Shown here: one piece after another, positions 7,452 through 12,201 of the stretch
How the letters are laid out: every line of letters begins with the position of its first letter
How positions within the stretch are numbered: position 1 is the stretch's first letter
Source of the DNA: a virus
Lineage: Duplodnaviria; Heunggongvirae; Uroviricota; Caudoviricetes
Length of the DNA stretch: 29,042 bases
Reading direction: 5' to 3' (one strand)
Virus record (IMG/VR): IMGVR_UViG_3300029911_000006
Translations under genes and position numbers: made by a program
Notes under the pieces: generated by a model
Databases searched by the model: none
What the model was told of the DNA's origin: nothing
The model's input: only the letters and a program-made list of their open reading frames with translations

Positions 7452-9326
7452 TTAGACCGCCTCCGTTGCAAACCCTGCGGCCTTCACCGTGACTCCAGCA
7501 TCGGCCAGAGTCTTGACGACCCAATCCTTCCCGACCTTTTCAATCTTCGCACCCTTGGCAACCAGTTCATCGAACTTGGTCAGCTTCGACTTACCGGCCC
7601 CGGAGTCGCCCACGATAAGGTGGGTGAGGTTCTTGGACACGCCAGACTTCGCAACAGCACCGAGAGATTCAAACTTCTTCGTGAGGTCGTCGCGGTCTAC
7701 GAAGTCAAACTCGCCAGTGATGCAGAACGCCACACCAACCAGAGGCTGAGCCCCTGCATTCTGCGTGACGGTAGGCTCAGGACGAACACCAGCACGGTAC
7801 AGGGCCTCGCAAATGGAACGGTTCACAGGGTCGAGAGACCACTTCAGCAGAATCTCGCTCTTGACATCGCCCATGCCTTCGATGTTGCTCTTGGACGCAG
7901 CCTCCAGCTTGGAGCACAGGGTGAGCATGTCACCAGACTCCAGCTTGAGTTCCTTCGCCAGCAGCTTACCCAAGGTGCGACCGACCATCGGGATACCGAA
8001 GGCAGAGAGCCACTTGTTCCACGGGGCCGTCTTGGCCTTCTCCATGCTGCGGAGCATCTTCAGGACGGTGACGTTGAACCCCTGCTTGTTCATCAAGGCA
8101 AGGAACTTGGTCTCACCCGGCTCTTCACCATACTTGACTTGAAGAATGTTGAGTTCACGAAGAGCTTCAACTTGGAACTCGAACAACTCACCGATGTTGC
8201 GTGCGAACTCGCCCTTGATGATGCGGGTCGCCATATCGTCGGCCAGACCATCAATTTCAAGGATGTCGCGAGAGCCGATGTAGCTGAACAGGTCACGCAC
8301 GCGACCGGGGCATACACCGTTCTCGCAGAAGCGAGTGGTGATTTTGCTCTTGGGGTCAGTCCATACCGTGATGACCTTCTGGCACTCAGGGCAGACGGAG
8401 GGGAAGATGATGTCCTCGCCAGTGTCGTCCAGCACCTTGGTAATCTGCGGGATGACATCGCCGGAGCGAAGCATCTCAACCTTGGCTCCCAGCTTCAGGC
8501 CCATGGCGGTAATCCACGTCTCGTTGTTGAGAGTCGCACGGGTCACCGATGCACCAGCAAGCACAACCGGGTCACACGTCGCCACCGGGGTGAGGGCACC
8601 CTGACGACCAATCTGCCAGATGATTTCGCGGAGGTAGGTCGTGCCTGATGCCGACTGCGGCTTGAAGCACGTCATCCAGTTCGTGAACTTCGATGCTACG
8701 CCAAGTTCCTTGCGAAGCTTGTGCGAGTCCACCTTGATGACCACACCGTCTGCACGGATGTCGGACTTGGAGTTCAGAGCGAGGATAGCATCAATAGCGG
8801 GAATCACTTCAGATTCCTTCTCCACCCGTATGCCGAGATACTTGGGGAACCCCACACTTTCCAATAGCTGCATCCGGTCATATGCCGAATCCGGCAAGTT
8901 AGCGTCTTCGGTGGGGGAGTACATGTCCCACGGTATCAGGATGAGGGCGCGGCTGGAGACAACTGACAGGTCTTTCTGTTTCAGAGTTCCCGCAGTAAGA
9001 TTGCGGGTTGATGCGTAAGTCTTAGCCCCTTTGGCAGTCGCCTCCGCGTTGATGCGGTCGAGTTCTCCGTCACGCATGACCAGTTCGCCCCGAACGCGAA
9101 TCTCCTTTGCCATATCCAGTAGTGGAGCCTGAGCTAAAACCTGAGGAACATTACGGAGAGCCCTGACCTGAGCGGTCATATCCTCGCCTTCGGAGCCAGT
9201 GCCACGGGTAACAGCTTGGGTCAGCCGCCCGTTGACGTAGCATAGCTCGGCACTAACACCGTCTTGCTTGGCCTCAAACAAACAAACTACCGGATTCTTA
9301 GTAAGGGAACTCGCAGGTGATTCCAT
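7452..9326 (-). CDS. ligA: NAD-dependent DNA ligase, C-terminal piece. It carries the adenylation core from the KxDG lysine, the OB domain, a Zn finger, HhH repeats and a BRCT domain. It lacks domain Ia
   Basis: 624 aa; EAKQDGVSAELCYVNG motif I; CPECQ...C...GVCPG zinc finger; FGIPMVGRTLGKLL HhH; C-terminal BRCT; AGGAG RBS before the ATG at 9326. Confidence 0.9.
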   Translation of the reverse strand: MESPASSLTKNPVVCLFEAKQDGVSAELCYVNGRLTQAVTRGTGSEGEDMTAQVRALRNVPQVLAQAPLLDMAKEIRVRGELVMRDGELDRINAEATAKGAKTYASTRNLTAGTLKQKDLSVVSSRALILIPWDMYSPTEDANLPDSAYDRMQLLESVGFPKYLGIRVEKESEVIPAIDAILALNSKSDIRADGVVIKVDSHKLRKELGVASKFTNWMTCFKPQSASGTTYLREIIWQIGRQGALTPVATCDPVVLAGASVTRATLNNETWITAMGLKLGAKVEMLRSGDVIPQITKVLDDTGEDIIFPSVCPECQKVITVWTDPKSKITTRFCENGVCPGRVRDLFSYIGSRDILEIDGLADDMATRIIKGEFARNIGELFEFQVEALRELNILQVKYGEEPGETKFLALMNKQGFNVTVLKMLRSMEKAKTAPWNKWLSAFGIPMVGRTLGKLLAKELKLESGDMLTLCSKLEAASKSNIEGMGDVKSEILLKWSLDPVNRSICEALYRAGVRPEPTVTQNAGAQPLVGVAFCITGEFDFVDRDDLTKKFESLGAVAKSGVSKNLTHLIVGDSGAGKSKLTKFDELVAKGAKIEKVGKDWVVKTLADAGVTVKAAGFATEAV

Positions 9327-9370
9327 CTCGATACTTTCTCCTACTTCTAGGATACATGAAAACGTCGGAT

Positions 9371-9994
9371 ATGAAGAAAATTATTTCAATCTACCAGATA
9401 CGCAATCTGGTGAACGGCAAGCTATACATCGGGAGTTCCCTGTGGACGCAAAAACGATTCAACAAACACTCTTCCCTGCTTAGCAAAGGCACCCACCCTA
9501 ACGCCCATCTTCAAGCCGCGTGGAACCTGTATGGTAAAGTTGCCTTCGCTTTTGAAATCCTCGAAGTATGCCCACCGGACACGCTTGAGATAGACCTGCG
9601 TCAGAAGGAGGCTGGGTACATCAAAACGCTTGCTGCCGAGTACAACATGGCTGTTAGCACTACGGCACCGATGACGGGTCGGAAACACTCGACACAGGTG
9701 GTTGAGGGTATTAGAGAGAGGATGAAACTGTTCCGACACACCGAGGAATCCAAGAAGAAAATTGCAGACTCCAATCGCCGTAGAAAGGGGGAGACCCGCT
9801 CTGCTGCGGTGAGAGCAAAGCTGTCGGCGATTCATAAGGGGAAGAAGCATAAACCATTCTCCGATGAAGCTAGGAAGAACATAAGCGAGGCACAGAAGCG
9901 AAGGTTTCAAACTCAGGCACCAACCGGCTGTGCTGCTAGAGGAAAGGGGTGGAAGCACACCGAGGAAGCGAGGAGACTGATGAAACGTGTTTAG
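9371..9994 (+). CDS. GIY-YIG homing endonuclease with NUMOD-like repeats
   Basis: MKKIISIYQIRNLVNGKLYIGSS...RFNKH N-terminal GIY-YIG motif; repeated basic helix motifs downstream; AT-rich; opposite strand to its neighbours. Confidence 0.8.
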   Translation: MKKIISIYQIRNLVNGKLYIGSSLWTQKRFNKHSSLLSKGTHPNAHLQAAWNLYGKVAFAFEILEVCPPDTLEIDLRQKEAGYIKTLAAEYNMAVSTTAPMTGRKHSTQVVEGIRERMKLFRHTEESKKKIADSNRRRKGETRSAAVRAKLSAIHKGKKHKPFSDEARKNISEAQKRRFQTQAPTGCAARGKGWKHTEEARRLMKRV

Positions 9995-10320
9995 TCCTCA
10001 TCCCCTATTTCTCTGGTACACCAGCCACAGGGAGGGTACCCCATATGACAGTAGCAGCTAGTTGGAGCCTCATACGGGAGTTCCGGTTCGGGTGCCGCTT
10101 TTGGTTTGCGGTTGGGGATGCCCAGCTTCTTGTTGAGGGCATACCTTTCTCTGGCCTTTCTCCTTCTTCGCTCGTTGAGCATCTCCGTTCGTTTACGCCC
10201 TTGTTCCTGCACTAAACGGGACAGGGCTTTGAATCCATCAAAAATGTCATATACGACATGAGAGCCAGAGTCATGCGATGCCCGTACAATCTTGTCGATT
10301 TCTTTCTTAGCCTCGTCGCT
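9991..10320 (-). CDS. hypothetical basic protein with a C-terminal CYCHMGYPPCGWC zinc knuckle (109 aa from MSDEAKKEIDKIV)
   Basis: Internal ATG of track ORF 9991-10566, with an AGGAG RBS. Confidence 0.5.
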   Translation of the reverse strand, partial: SDEAKKEIDKIVRASHDSGSHVVYDIFDGFKALSRLVQEQGRKRTEMLNERRRRKARERYALNKKLGIPNRKPKAAPEPELPYEAPTSCYCHMGYPPCGWCTREIGDED

Positions 10321-10362
10321 CATCCGTGCATCTCCTTTTCTAATATCAAACCCACAGTAGGT

Positions 10363-11061: not shown

Positions 11062-11427
11062 TCAGGCTGTCGGCACAAACACCCGGTAGTCTCTGGCGGC
11101 TTTCATGCACTCTTGCACTGAGGTCTTCTGAACTCTGGGTAAGCAGTTGAACTCCTCGACCAGAGCCGTAAGCGCGAAGAGGGCCTCGTCCAACCGATAT
11201 GATTCTACCTCATCAGGGGGTAGTCCCTGTATGTCCCCACACAGGTCGCGTGGAACCGTGGTAGTTTCCTCCTTCAGTTTGGATAGTACCGAGATAAGGT
11301 TGCTCCGCGCTACAGCATAGTGAGCTACGATGCAATAATCTGAATCAACCGGGCCAGAAAGCTTCAGATACTGCACTATAGCCTCTGTCAATTGTGCTTT
11401 CATTTCGCTATTCATCGTTGTTCTCAT
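11062..11427 (-). CDS. hypothetical protein (about 121 aa from MRTTMNSEMKAQLTEAIVQYL)
   Basis: Track ORF 11062-11565; the upstream Arg-rich extension looks non-coding. Confidence 0.4.
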   Translation of the reverse strand: MRTTMNSEMKAQLTEAIVQYLKLSGPVDSDYCIVAHYAVARSNLISVLSKLKEETTTVPRDLCGDIQGLPPDEVESYRLDEALFALTALVEEFNCLPRVQKTSVQECMKAARDYRVFVPTA

Positions 11428-11571
11428 CAAGGCAGTCCTGTGAGCAGTGCCACGCACCATCTTCCGATGTAAAGTTCTCGCCGATACCCTCAGCAAAGCC
11501 GGGGTCAACCTCGGTTGCGGGGTACCGCTTGCCACATACATCACCACACGGGCAGATAATGTCATTGGGTC

Positions 11572-11799
11572 TCATGAATTTACCTCCGTTCCGCCTGAAA
11601 TCGTGGTCATATTCTGTAGGTTTATCTTGGCAAGTGTAGGAGCCTCCGGTAGTAATTCAACCGCCCCATCAATCACTTGTTTCAATTCCTCTATCTGGTC
11701 TTTAGCGGTACACATAGGGCACTTGTTGAGAAACCCATCATGCGTCCATGAGACTATGCAACCGTCATGCGCTTCACATATGTAAATGGCTGCTCTCAT
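11572..11799 (-). CDS. hypothetical zinc-finger protein, 75 aa
   Basis: ORF track; CEAHDGC...CPMC; AGGGGA RBS. Confidence 0.5.
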   Translation of the reverse strand: MRAAIYICEAHDGCIVSWTHDGFLNKCPMCTAKDQIEELKQVIDGAVELLPEAPTLAKINLQNMTTISGGTEVNS

Positions 11800-11808
11800 A
11801 GTGTCCCC

Positions 11809-12201
11809 TTAGTCTGGAGTTCCTTGGAGTTCCTTGAAGAACTTCACCACGTCATCCTTGGTGTACTGGTTCTCGATGGAGAGCATGGGACGTACGTGCT
11901 TGATGCGACCAGTGCTGACAGATGCTTGAGCGTTGAGGTTGTCCATCGCTGCATCCAACGCAGCGGGATTGGGAACCACAGTCCTCAGCATGGAAGTCAG
12001 CGGACTATCTTCGATGTCACTACCCACGGCGTTCAATGCGGTCGCAAATTCCGCCAAGTCCGGGTTCGCGGCAACAGCACCCTTGAGTTGGGCTTCGAGG
12101 GTGTCGTACTCGGCGTCCGTCATGATGGGGGCGGCGAGGACATAGTAGGCGTGCTGGGCTCCAAGGAGTTTGGCGTTGATGTCTTTTACGAACGTTTCCA
12201 T
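11809..12201 (-). CDS. ligA: NAD-dependent DNA ligase, N-terminal piece (domain Ia plus the start of the adenylation domain; ends about 20 residues before the KxDG lysine)
   Basis: 130 aa; HAYYVLAAPIMTDAEYDTLEAQL...DSPLTSM...IKHVRPMLSIENQYTKDDVVKFFKELQ matches the LigA N-terminal consensus (YYxxDxPxISDxEYD...SPT...HxxPMLSLxN). Confidence 0.85.
   Translation of the reverse strand: METFVKDINAKLLGAQHAYYVLAAPIMTDAEYDTLEAQLKGAVAANPDLAEFATALNAVGSDIEDSPLTSMLRTVVPNPAALDAAMDNLNAQASVSTGRIKHVRPMLSIENQYTKDDVVKFFKELQGTPD

Follow-up and report, generated by a model that had tools for sequence, protein, structure and literature searches.

The NAD-dependent DNA ligase of a giant soil phage (megaphage) is encoded as two separate open reading frames (ORFs), the N-fragment and the C-fragment, within the window, that is, the whole stretch of 29,042 nucleotides analysed here (Table 1). 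The original prediction, read from the DNA letters, had placed a ligase in these two ORFs, with domain Ia in one, the remaining enzyme from just before KxDG in the other, and the break inside the nucleotidyltransferase (NTase) domain; an ORF check, profile searches and alignments bear out each of these points. The N-fragment, whose NTase part consists of the first two strands and one helix, matches PHROG 3869, 'NAD-dependent DNA ligase' (E = 1.1e-11, profile positions 9–67 of 656), and reaches Pfam Nlig-Ia at E = 2.3e-4 with 22.2 bits, under the gathering cut-off of 27. Its residues 8–51 and 90–126 align with residues 11–54 and 63–99 of E. coli LigA, such that Y19, D29, Y32, and D33 correspond, in a gap-free alignment, to the NMN-binding domain Ia residues Y22, D32, Y35, and D36, while the position of E. 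coli H23 is occupied by Tyr, likewise across the whole phage clade. The RPMLSIEN motif is also kept.

The C-fragment aligns to residues 108–655 of E. coli LigA (E = 2.5e-64) and matches Pfam DNA_ligase_aden (E = 1e-45) over profile positions 39–249 of 253, the first ~38 positions being missing, as well as the OB (3e-23) and BRCT (2e-7) families. Four Cys align to the zinc-finger region of E. coli LigA, and so does the HhH region to its counterpart, with no match to the Pfam HhH domain in the C-fragment. Motif I reads EAKQDG, differing from the EPKxDG dominant in the phage clade, and its KQDG (residues 20–23) is aligned to E. coli K115–G118, with the catalytic Lys at residue 20 (codon 9267–9269). 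When joined, the two pieces, between which the NTase domain is divided, are colinear with intact phage ligases over residues 4–742. Bacterial LigA (E. coli, PDB 2OWO) has the same domain order (Ia, NTase, OB, Zn, HhH, BRCT) and shares the conserved residues of domain Ia and motif I with the window ligase, which differs in being encoded as two polypeptides and in joining domain Ia to the NTase domain by a long linker of low complexity. The split is not an assembly artefact because the same arrangement is found in contigs from various samples and assemblers, namely 8 out of 21 N-fragment-bearing contigs that were read.

The 2.5-kb insert between the pieces is densely coding on both strands. Five genes had been predicted there, three on the ligase strand (75, 55, and 121 aa) and two opposite, a GIY-YIG endonuclease and an ADP-ribosyltransferase; all five are present and both identities hold, yet the count is probably six, given a 110-aa ORF that is probably coding on the ligase strand. 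This ORF is also called in the related phage L038, with one amino-acid change, and is replaced in public gene calls by a 56-aa ORF on the plus strand at 10045–10215. The ADP-ribosyltransferase gene has an alternative start at 10363, giving 230 aa. The homing endonuclease gene (HEG) is antisense to the ligase, its start lying 29 nt from that of the C-fragment.

Table 1. Features of the split ligase locus, with positions in the window
Feature	Position	Strand	Details
Promoter-like motif GGTATACT	12208..12215	-	6 nt 5' of N-fragment ATG
LigA N-fragment	11809..12201	-	130 aa; domain Ia, long linker, NTase strands and helix to '...FFKELQ'
Left cassette junction, 10-bp tandem duplication (CAAGGAACTC x2)	11817..11836	-	From alignment of window with phage L036
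Tract identical to phage L036	9091..11836		~2.75 kb, single mismatch at 9365; cassette and first ~235 nt of C-fragment
Cassette ORF, Cys-rich	11572..11799	-	75 aa; no family match
Cassette ORF, Cys-rich	11408..11575	-	55 aa; no family match
Cassette ORF	11062..11427	-	121 aa; no family match
Stand-alone ART-PolyVal ADP-ribosyltransferase gene	10273..11055	+	260 aa as called; PF18760, E 2.9e-15, 57.7 bits vs cut-off 31.2
Probable cassette ORF, ligase strand	9991..10323	-	110 aa; no family match
Free-standing GIY-YIG + NUMOD3 HEG	9356..9994	+	212 aa; GIY-YIG 1.6e-9, NUMOD3 5.7e-8, phrog_314 'homing endonuclease' 1.3e-25
Shine–Dalgarno AGGAG	9338..9342	-	11 nt 5' of C-fragment ATG; belongs to junction module
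LigA C-fragment	7452..9326	-	624 aa; 12-residue new head MESPASSLTKNP, NTase core, OB, four-Cys zinc finger, HhH region, BRCT

Break point and junctions

The break maps to a surface loop between Q99 and V108 of E. coli LigA. In the AF2 model of an intact relative, P0009 (mean pLDDT 86.9), it falls in loop 101–107, which is flanked by helix 92–100 and by strand 108–114 bearing K113. The N-fragment had been thought to stop about 20 residues before the catalytic Lys; this Lys is indeed residue 20 of the C-fragment, but 12 of these residues form the new head, and only ~8 residues of ligase sequence are missing at the break.

At the left junction, the duplication changes the tail of the N-fragment from ...LQTKGTL* in L036 to ...LQGTPD* in the window, whose N-fragment thereby ends in a four-residue tail, GTPD, with a stop codon that comes from the cassette. 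On the other side, L036, L130, and L131 all keep the AGGAGAA...AG ATG arrangement, and the C-fragment heads of the junction module are MESPASSLTKNPVVC, MGSPVSSSTMNPVVC, MESPTNSSTLKVC, and MAPVNSATLKVC across lineages. Several phage lineages share both this break point and this junction module. Upstream of the N-fragment, the GGTATACT motif precedes the ligase start at equal spacing in L039, L043, L045, L046, and L047. Nothing sigma-70-like stands out as a promoter for the C-fragment, whose transcription must either run antisense across two genes or begin at a promoter that escaped recognition.

Polymorphism and mobility of the insert

Intact ligases of 718–774 aa occur in relatives whose ligases are 68–78% identical. 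Intact alleles comprise P0009 and those in P0010–P0019 (P0011 being listed as split), and split ones P0007, P0008, P0011, P0025, P0027, P0063, and P0087. A syntenic empty site is seen in L043, where the upstream order of HD_4 gene, 256-aa gene, and ligase is kept. The tract shared with L036 is embedded in flanks of only about 60–75% identity (58–70% in the 5' part of the N-fragment and 67–80% in the distal C-fragment), and the neighbouring genes differ between the two phages. On the C side, identity declines gradually through 97, 89, 86, 80, and 72% by about 8400, while the left co-conversion boundary is inseparable from ordinary conservation of the RPMLSIEN codons, at which the intact L047 is 93% identical.

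An antisense nuclease gene lies 3–53 nt from the C-fragment start in all seven split loci examined, which are all those with DNA available; six encode a GIY-YIG enzyme and one (L039) an HNH/EndoVII-like enzyme. The GIY-YIG proteins are 66% (L130), 57% (L131–133), 49% (L046), and 26% (L045) identical to that of the window, and the homologues in L046, L130, and L131–133 hold the same position. The minimal element is the HEG alone, as in L131 (N-fragment, 101 aa; HEG, 260 aa; C-fragment, 604 aa). A nuclease ORF with a DNA-binding module, presence/absence polymorphism, and an element far more similar than its flanks, the marks of intronless homing, are thus found together. The sequence comparisons identify the insert as a mobile cassette that owes its movement to a free-standing GIY-YIG HEG, is polymorphic among related phages, and bears a signature of co-conversion. 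Since the neighbour-joining tree takes in the co-converted region, the number of transfer events counted from it is unreliable.

Split and intact alleles also differ in motif I, which is E-P-K-x-D-G in 96 of 104 N-intact relatives and E-[A/Q/R]-K in 7/7 genuine split alleles (Fisher p = 1.3e-6, treating the doubtful P0096 as a split allele and ignoring kinship among sequences). This pattern would fit either immunity of the target site or compensation for the split; a nuclease target near motif I is only guessed from it. The mobile cassette, its polymorphism, and the recurrent break and junction module were all absent from the original prediction.

Fate of the divided ligase

The locus is probably explained by insertion of a HEG into ligA, spread of the element by homing, and non-covalent reassembly of the two pieces. 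According to this scenario, a free-standing GIY-YIG HEG would have entered the ligA reading frame of a megaphage, in the loop between the NTase helix ending '...L-Q' and the β-strand with motif I (KxDG). The element would bring a stop codon for the upstream part and a Shine–Dalgarno sequence, an ATG, and a head of ~12 residues for the downstream part, and therefore ligA would become two genes. Five passenger ORFs, including that of the ART-PolyVal ADP-ribosyltransferase, would have been acquired later by the HEG in the window lineage. Among co-infecting related phages, the element would spread via intronless homing, in which the nuclease presumably cleaves the intact allele close to the codons for motif I; with the cassette-bearing genome as repair template, the cut site would then receive both the cassette and adjacent ligase sequence, and intact ligases would be converted into split ones. 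The N- and C-polypeptides would be made separately and then reassemble non-covalently, the two strands and helix of the former completing the NTase fold of the latter and tethering domain Ia, which is needed for the reaction with NAD+.

As originally supposed, either two polypeptides form the enzyme or it is non-functional, and this proves the right pair of alternatives. The dN/dS of the C-fragment is 0.13–0.29 and that of the N-fragment 0.15–0.25 in most pairs, two pairs involving L046 reaching 0.42 and 0.53, and the range is alike for split-versus-split and split-versus-intact comparisons; with dS near or beyond saturation these values are rough, and the divergence may partly predate the split. 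Retained residues include those of domain Ia, RPMLSIEN, the K, D, and G of motif I, and all four Cys of the zinc finger. Given the catalytic residues kept in both pieces, their dN/dS of ~0.13–0.29, and a Shine–Dalgarno sequence and ATG belonging to the C-fragment itself, a two-subunit ligase would be the likeliest outcome; the window covers 29 kb of a genome of ~430 kb, and a ligase elsewhere could relax the selection.

That the split killed the ligase, leaving two decaying remnants in a phage that uses the host LigA or another phage ligase, is unlikely. Interrupting the catalytic domain 8 residues ahead of the active-site strand might well abolish enzyme function, host ligases are often usable by phages, and most of the genome lies outside the window; moreover, gene decay does occur in this phage, because the adjoining RNA_ligase-family gene is down to a 49-codon remnant. 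Decay of the ligase is nevertheless at odds with dN/dS values equal to those of intact genes, with the retained catalytic and NAD+-binding residues and the conserved Shine–Dalgarno sequence and ATG at the junction, and with both ORFs being full length, free of internal stops, in at least seven split loci whose C-fragments are only 47–79% identical.

Rather improbable, too, is that the C-fragment alone is the ligase, working without domain Ia or with another partner, while the N-fragment has drifted to a different role or is a passenger. The C-fragment is larger and has the stronger family matches, and E. coli LigA deprived of domain Ia reportedly still seals pre-adenylylated nicks in work by Sriskanda and Shuman. 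Yet without domain Ia and the first ~38 positions of the adenylation profile, which include the PMLS(I/L)(E/D)N strand, its fold alone would be incomplete, and a conserved N-fragment always lies next to the C-fragment on the same strand, its NMN-binding residues in domain Ia being invariant.

A giant group I or group II intron, or a twintron, whose splicing restores a continuous ligA mRNA, is very improbable, in agreement with the original prediction. HEGs of phages are frequently intron-borne, the automatic JGI name of this HEG is 'group I intron endonuclease', and the break adjoins a highly conserved motif, as is usual for intron sites; against this, no Rfam intron matched at E <= 1 in window positions 9200–12300, L039 700–1900, or L046 4700–6700, though a very divergent ribozyme might escape these covariance models, and the 2.5-kb insert carries genes on both strands. 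In the minimal elements of L131 and L045, there is no space for a ribozyme core because the antisense HEG fills the element, leaving 3–41 nt on the C side and overlapping the N-fragment ORF, and the conserved Shine–Dalgarno sequence, ATG, and head point to translation re-initiation. Joining of the halves by a split intein through protein trans-splicing is scarcely credible, since, despite a similar look to the 'fractured genes' with split inteins (Dassa et al. 2009, PMC2677866), in which an endonuclease-bearing insert divides a gene, non-ligase residues number only 4–8 after '...LQ' and only ~4–20 before the ligase resumes, where roughly 100 + 35 are required, and Pfam found no intein or Hint domain.

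Comparison with known systems

Splitting of genes by such inserts ('genes-in-pieces') is already known, but no ligase is known to be broken at this point. Phage NAD-dependent ligases made of two ORFs on one strand are found in T5, as the original prediction mentioned (LigA/LigB, T5.116/T5.117; PMC3632103), and in Tunturiibacter phage Tunturi_5. The T5 break lies elsewhere, beyond the OB fold, and leaves pieces of 323 and 259 aa that are separated by 202 bp without a gene; that of Tunturi_5 lies at about residue 430–439 of the joined N+C ligase sequence, with eight genes between the pieces. A T5-type break thus falls between domains, whereas the window break interrupts the NTase domain 8 residues ahead of the strand with motif I. 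The T5-type halves correspond to PHROGs families 3359 and 3498, and the window C-fragment spans phrog_3359 positions 73–324 plus phrog_3498; a T5-type split was rejected for the window, whose break is ~220 residues further upstream.

T4-type intronless homing by Seg/Mob endonucleases (Edgell et al. 2010, PMC2988022, review; Barth et al. 2023, PMC10448857) resembles the window system in its free-standing GIY-YIG or HNH genes, which vary in presence among related phages. Both also show an element whose similarity far exceeds that of its flanks, co-conversion of the markers beside it, and nucleases of different families at one site. Seg/Mob genes are mostly intergenic, in contrast to the window element, which lies inside a coding sequence and carries translation signals predicted to keep both halves expressed.

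In the nrdA of Aeromonas phage Aeh1, a split by the free-standing endonuclease gene mobE was reportedly described by Friedrich et al. in 2007. The enzyme, encoded by nrdA-a and nrdA-b, reassembles non-covalently (Crona et al. 2010, PMC3045599), whereas assembly and activity of the window ligase are predicted. The two systems further differ in the enzyme (RNR in Aeh1, LigA in the window), in the antisense orientation of the window HEG with its five passenger ORFs, and in the N-fragment tail: a frameshift separates its two versions (GTPD and TKGTL), so that it probably does not serve, as the NrdA tails do, in an essential interaction. In common, they have a free-standing HEG in the coding sequence of an essential enzyme of nucleotide or DNA metabolism, near the active site, and two ORFs whose new tails come from the insertion.

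Two ORFs for one NAD-dependent DNA ligase

The original prediction that the window encodes a NAD-dependent DNA ligase (LigA) in two separate pieces proved essentially right. Both ORFs are present where they had been placed (table), and the LigA identity claimed for the N-terminal piece (N-fragment) is confirmed by a profile search, in which it matches PHROG 3869, 'NAD-dependent DNA ligase', over positions 9-67 of 656 (E 1.1e-11). The match of this piece to Pfam Nlig-Ia is weak, and its residues 8-51 and 90-126 align with E. coli LigA 11-54 and 63-99. The C-terminal piece (C-fragment) matches Pfam DNA_ligase_aden from profile position 39 on (E 1e-45) as well as OB and BRCT, aligns to E. 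coli LigA 108-655 (E 2.5e-64), and carries the catalytic lysine of motif I (KxDG, here KQDG) at residue 20. Joined end to end, the two fragments align with intact phage ligases in one colinear stretch (residues 4-742), and the break costs the ligase no more than a loop of ~8 residues, positions 100-107 in the E. coli enzyme. Given the presence of both ORFs, their family matches and the colinear alignment, the split is real. Database records place an exact copy of the N-fragment protein on 21 contigs of up to 431,749 bp, and the same gene order is shown for 8 of them; as samples and assemblers differ, an assembly artefact is ruled out.

The position of the break in the fold was read from an AlphaFold2 model of P0009, an intact relative of 719 aa with 78% identity to the C-fragment (mean pLDDT 86.9). 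In the model, domain Ia consists of helices between residues 6 and 64, followed by a low-confidence linker, strands 76-78 and 85-89 (PMLSIEN motif), and helix 92-100, which loop 101-107 separates from strand 108-114, on which K113 is located. The break site falls after L102-Q103, inside this loop, and thus the N-fragment holds domain Ia together with a helix and two strands of the nucleotidyltransferase (NTase) domain, and the C-fragment by itself is an incomplete NTase fold.

The possibility that the insert is an intron, already considered unlikely in the original prediction, an intein or a frameshift is rejected. An Rfam search for introns at permissive thresholds found none in the inserts of the window and of two other split loci, L039 and L046, and in the minimal elements of L131 and L045 the antisense nuclease ORF fills the insert, leaving a ribozyme without room. 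A split intein is rejected because the N-fragment continues for just 4-8 residues beyond its ligase sequence and the C-fragment has about 4-20 ahead of its own, far too few for intein halves. The 'three ligase ORFs' of Serratia phage 2050HW lie next to or overlap one another in different frames, probably through frameshifts, and are not comparable.

Features of the window (positions of the window; the last row is in L039, a split locus of a related phage)
Feature	Position	Strand	Match or remark
Seven tRNA genes	4261-6695	-	Ile-TAT, Leu-TAA, Met, four tRNA-Ser (TGA, CGA, GCT, GGA)
C-fragment, 624 aa	7452-9326	-	
GIY-YIG + NUMOD3 homing endonuclease gene	9356-9994	+	phrog_314, 1.3e-25
Probable cassette ORF, 110 aa, Cys-rich	9991-10323	-	no family match
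56-aa ORF in public gene calls	10045-10215	+	between ART and GIY-YIG genes
ART-PolyVal ADP-ribosyltransferase gene		+	PF18760, 57.7 bits
Cassette ORFs of 75, 55 and 121 aa		-	no family match
N-fragment, 130 aa	11809-12201	-	
10-bp tandem duplication	11817-11836	-	left cassette junction
GGTATACT-type motif	12208-12215; also 2602, 13630	-	latter two precede other genes
HD_4 phosphohydrolase gene	13072-13653	-	
499-aa ORF	14386-15885		no family match
RNA_ligase-family remnant	15948-16094	-	PF09414, first ~49 codons only
dATP/dGTP diphosphohydrolase N-domain gene	16723-17688	-	PF18909
Three adjacent genes	21366-25002	-	ABC-transporter ATPase (PF00005, 2e-25); binding-protein-dependent permease, weak match (PF00528, below cut-off); 613-aa protein with C-terminal OmpA domain (3e-16)
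HNH/EndoVII-like nuclease gene (L039)	1177-1677	-	phrog_3322, 1.7e-36

Several neighbouring features are worth recording. The motif GGTATACT (variants GGTAGAAT and GGTATAAT) lies 5-6 nt upstream of the ligase ATG in six lineages; beyond the window, motifs of this type precede the ligase in L039, L043, L045, L046 and L047, and the C-fragment in L045, L046 and L130. About 0.9 copies of the exact 8-mer would be expected and four occur, always on the coding strand; it may be a phage promoter giving leaderless or near-leaderless mRNAs; a scan for sigma-70 promoters and terminators did no better than on shuffled sequence. The RNA_ligase remnant shows 75-91% amino acid identity over its length to L043 and L047, relatives in which this gene is intact, and the rest of the gene is replaced by the 499-aa ORF; this is a second gene disruption or replacement near the ligase. 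The three adjacent genes for an ATPase, a permease and an OmpA-domain protein are unusual for a phage. The HD_4 and PF18909 genes, both syntenic in relatives, flank the ligase region and are reminiscent of DatZ/MazZ, a pair found in phages whose DNA is modified, and no match to the adenylosuccinate-synthetase family (a PurZ-like gene) was found among the ten largest other ORFs of the window.

The inserted cassette and its nuclease

The 2.5-kb cassette between the two fragments carries a free-standing homing endonuclease gene (HEG) and an ADP-ribosyltransferase gene, both antisense to the ligase, and small ORFs on the ligase strand. The HEG starts 29 nt from the C-fragment start, and AGGAG is found 11 nt upstream of the C-fragment ATG. 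Family searches with the four small ORFs gave no match, and therefore none can be proposed as an assembly adaptor; these ORFs are also missing from minimal split loci. The 110-aa ORF, which overlies the DNA of the 56-aa ORF, is the one called in L038, a locus of a related phage.

A near-identical cassette, HEG included (100% identity), is found in another phage, L036, whose neighbouring genes differ from those of the window. Window positions 9091-11836 are identical to L036 with the exception of one mismatch; identity then steps down into the C-fragment (97, 89, 86, 80 and 72%) and, over the 5' portion of the N-fragment, amounts to 58-70%, the proteins being 56% (N-fragment, P0003, by BLASTP) and 79% (C-fragment) identical. 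Such a profile is the one expected from double-strand-break repair copying with co-conversion of flanking markers. The sole indel in the otherwise identical tract is the 10-bp tandem duplication (CAAGGAACTC), located exactly at the left cassette junction, which shifts the frame of the N-fragment tail from ...LQTKGTL-stop to ...LQGTPD-stop, making it unlikely that the tail is functionally important.

At every split locus compared at the DNA level, an antisense nuclease gene lies 3-53 nt from the C-fragment start. Its product is a GIY-YIG enzyme with 66% (L130), 57% (L131-133), 49% (L046) or 26% (L045) identity to that of the window, and in L039 an HNH/EndoVII-like nuclease of another family, that is, the nuclease has been swapped at a fixed site beside the C-fragment start. 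At the L039 nuclease, public annotation instead has a 134-aa ORF on the other strand, which is spurious. The minimal element, L131, comprises an N-fragment of 101 aa, a HEG product of 260 aa and a C-fragment of 604 aa, from which it follows that the cassette of the window is a HEG with acquired passengers. A HEG homologue with 45% identity resides outside any ligase (L134), and at 80 still more distant GIY-YIG homologue loci of the JGI metagenome collection no ligase is nearby, rendering these loci uninformative on the cassette element.

The C-fragment heads (MESPASSLTKNPVVC, MGSPVSSSTMNPVVC, MESPTNSSTLKVC and MAPVNSATLKVC) and the SD sequence can be recognised as homologous from one lineage to another, which argues for a single ancestral insertion followed by spread, not for repeated independent hits. 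The split of ligA very probably originated as a mobile cassette: a homing-endonuclease cassette would divide the gene and then propagate this 'fission allele'.

Intact and split alleles and the probable two-subunit enzyme

A search with the C-fragment returned, besides P0009, close intact ligases (P0010-P0019, 718-774 aa, 68-73% identity) and proteins starting just before KxDG, namely P0008 (622 aa, 79%), P0011 (615 aa, 73%), P0025 and P0027 (603 and 605 aa, 55%), P0063 (623 aa, 47%), and P0087 (59%, the record holding 427 aa). Contigs of 405-463 kb carry several of the intact relatives, and in L043 an intact ligase occupies the synteny of the window (HD_4 gene, 256-aa gene, ligase). The N-fragment retrieved stand-alone N-fragments of 106-132 aa with 54-66% identity; scanning IMG/VR with it gave only intact or distant ligases (at most 37% identity), and neither the exact junction 30-mer in the JGI metagenome collection nor the locus, by megablast against 50,697 phage records, found a match. 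In a neighbour-joining tree, the split alleles form three or more clades that each have intact neighbours; the tree includes co-converted sequence and is thus unusable for counting events. A profile search of 1.84 billion representatives yielded other short proteins, P0127, P0140 and P0161 among them, whose C-termini lie 22-35 residues beyond PMLS; these are uncounted because, without genomic context, they are indistinguishable from ORFs cut at contig ends. A split locus lacking a HEG may exist on the P0005 contig, where 166 bp separate a 121-aa N-fragment from a gene for more than 450 aa. P0096 (566 aa, start MLEEPKRDG) is rejected as a split allele: it keeps EPKRDG and starts inside a strand, probably from a miscalled start or a truncated gene.

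Motif I reads E-P-K-x-D-G in 96 of 104 N-intact relatives and E-[A/Q/R]-K-x-D-G in all seven genuine split alleles (Fisher p = 1.3e-6 with the doubtful P0096 scored as split, uncorrected for phylogeny, the split alleles representing about three lineages). The split-type motif may confer immunity to the cassette's own nuclease, the target of which would then include the motif-I codons, or compensate for the split. The N-intact P0009, P0014 and P0107 have the split-type motif (EAKQDG or ESKQDG) along with '...LQ' junction residues and may represent either intact alleles that resist the nuclease or genes that fused again once the cassette was lost; in the latter case, a selfish element would drive reversible fission and fusion of a gene.

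Both ORFs are unbroken in every split lineage examined. Values of dN/dS (NG86), which are rough as dS is at or near saturation, are 0.13-0.29 for C-fragments. Among the N-fragments, most pairs give 0.15-0.25, with 0.42 and 0.53 for two that include L046; otherwise split-split and split-intact pairs share the same range. Domain Ia keeps the equivalents of E. coli Y22, D32, Y35 and D36 and the RPMLSIEN motif; the K, D and G of motif I, the four zinc-finger Cys and the C-fragment translation signals are conserved as well. Together, these sequence features suggest that the split ligase is functional, probably as an active two-subunit enzyme. The likeliest mechanism is fragment complementation, in which the two strands and helix of the N-fragment would dock into the NTase sheet of the C-fragment, completing the adenylate pocket and tethering domain Ia for the reaction with NAD+.

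It is conceivable, albeit very improbable, that the split is exploited and not merely tolerated, the cassette spreading a NAD+-linked gene for host takeover or anti-defence along with a ligase remodelled to cope with it. A separate subunit for domain Ia, the NAD+/NMN-handling module, could make ligase charging controllable by subunit supply or NAD+ level, and the same cassette encodes the NAD+-consuming ART-PolyVal enzyme.

Significance and known systems

The split ligase provides a case, occurring in nature and persisting in evolution, in which a selfish element has cut an enzyme within its catalytic domain and the enzyme is still apparently under selection; in its clade, intact, minimally split (HEG only) and cargo-laden alleles can be compared. 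An active pair would be a natural two-piece LigA with the NAD+-specific module on its own chain, useful for studies of domain Ia closure and for split-ligase engineering. The homing cassette also serves as a carrier of passenger genes, here the ADP-ribosyltransferase, in uncultivated megaphages. In annotation, a 'truncated' ligase of ~600 aa whose start lies just ahead of KxDG should be matched to its other half, an ORF of about 100-130 aa located upstream.

The likeness to T5-like phages put forward in the original prediction holds in that T5 encodes ligA and ligB (PMC3632103), but not in position: the T5 break comes after the OB fold, giving pieces of 323 and 259 aa that are 202 bp apart with zero intervening genes, whereas that of the window is inside a domain. 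A T5-type break is also found in several relatives from the C-fragment search and in Tunturi_5, the closest cultured relative, whose ligase is only 40-44% identical and has its halves separated by 8 genes. P0107, P0109, P0116-P0121, P0124, P0126 and L001 belong to the same ligase clade and appear to have a T5-type split or a contig-end truncation at that position. As many clade relatives are apparently split at the T5-type position, LigA of these large phages seems, from sequence comparison, to have two recurrent fission sites. The literature searched contains no report of LigA split at the position seen in the window. The closest functional precedent is the nrdA of Aeh1, split by mobE (PMC3045599), and the closest mobility precedent is the T4-type intronless homing by Seg/Mob endonucleases (PMC2988022, PMC10448857). 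The phenomenon is known in kind; its novelty lies in which enzyme is split and where, in the cargo, and in the availability of intact, minimal and loaded alleles side by side.
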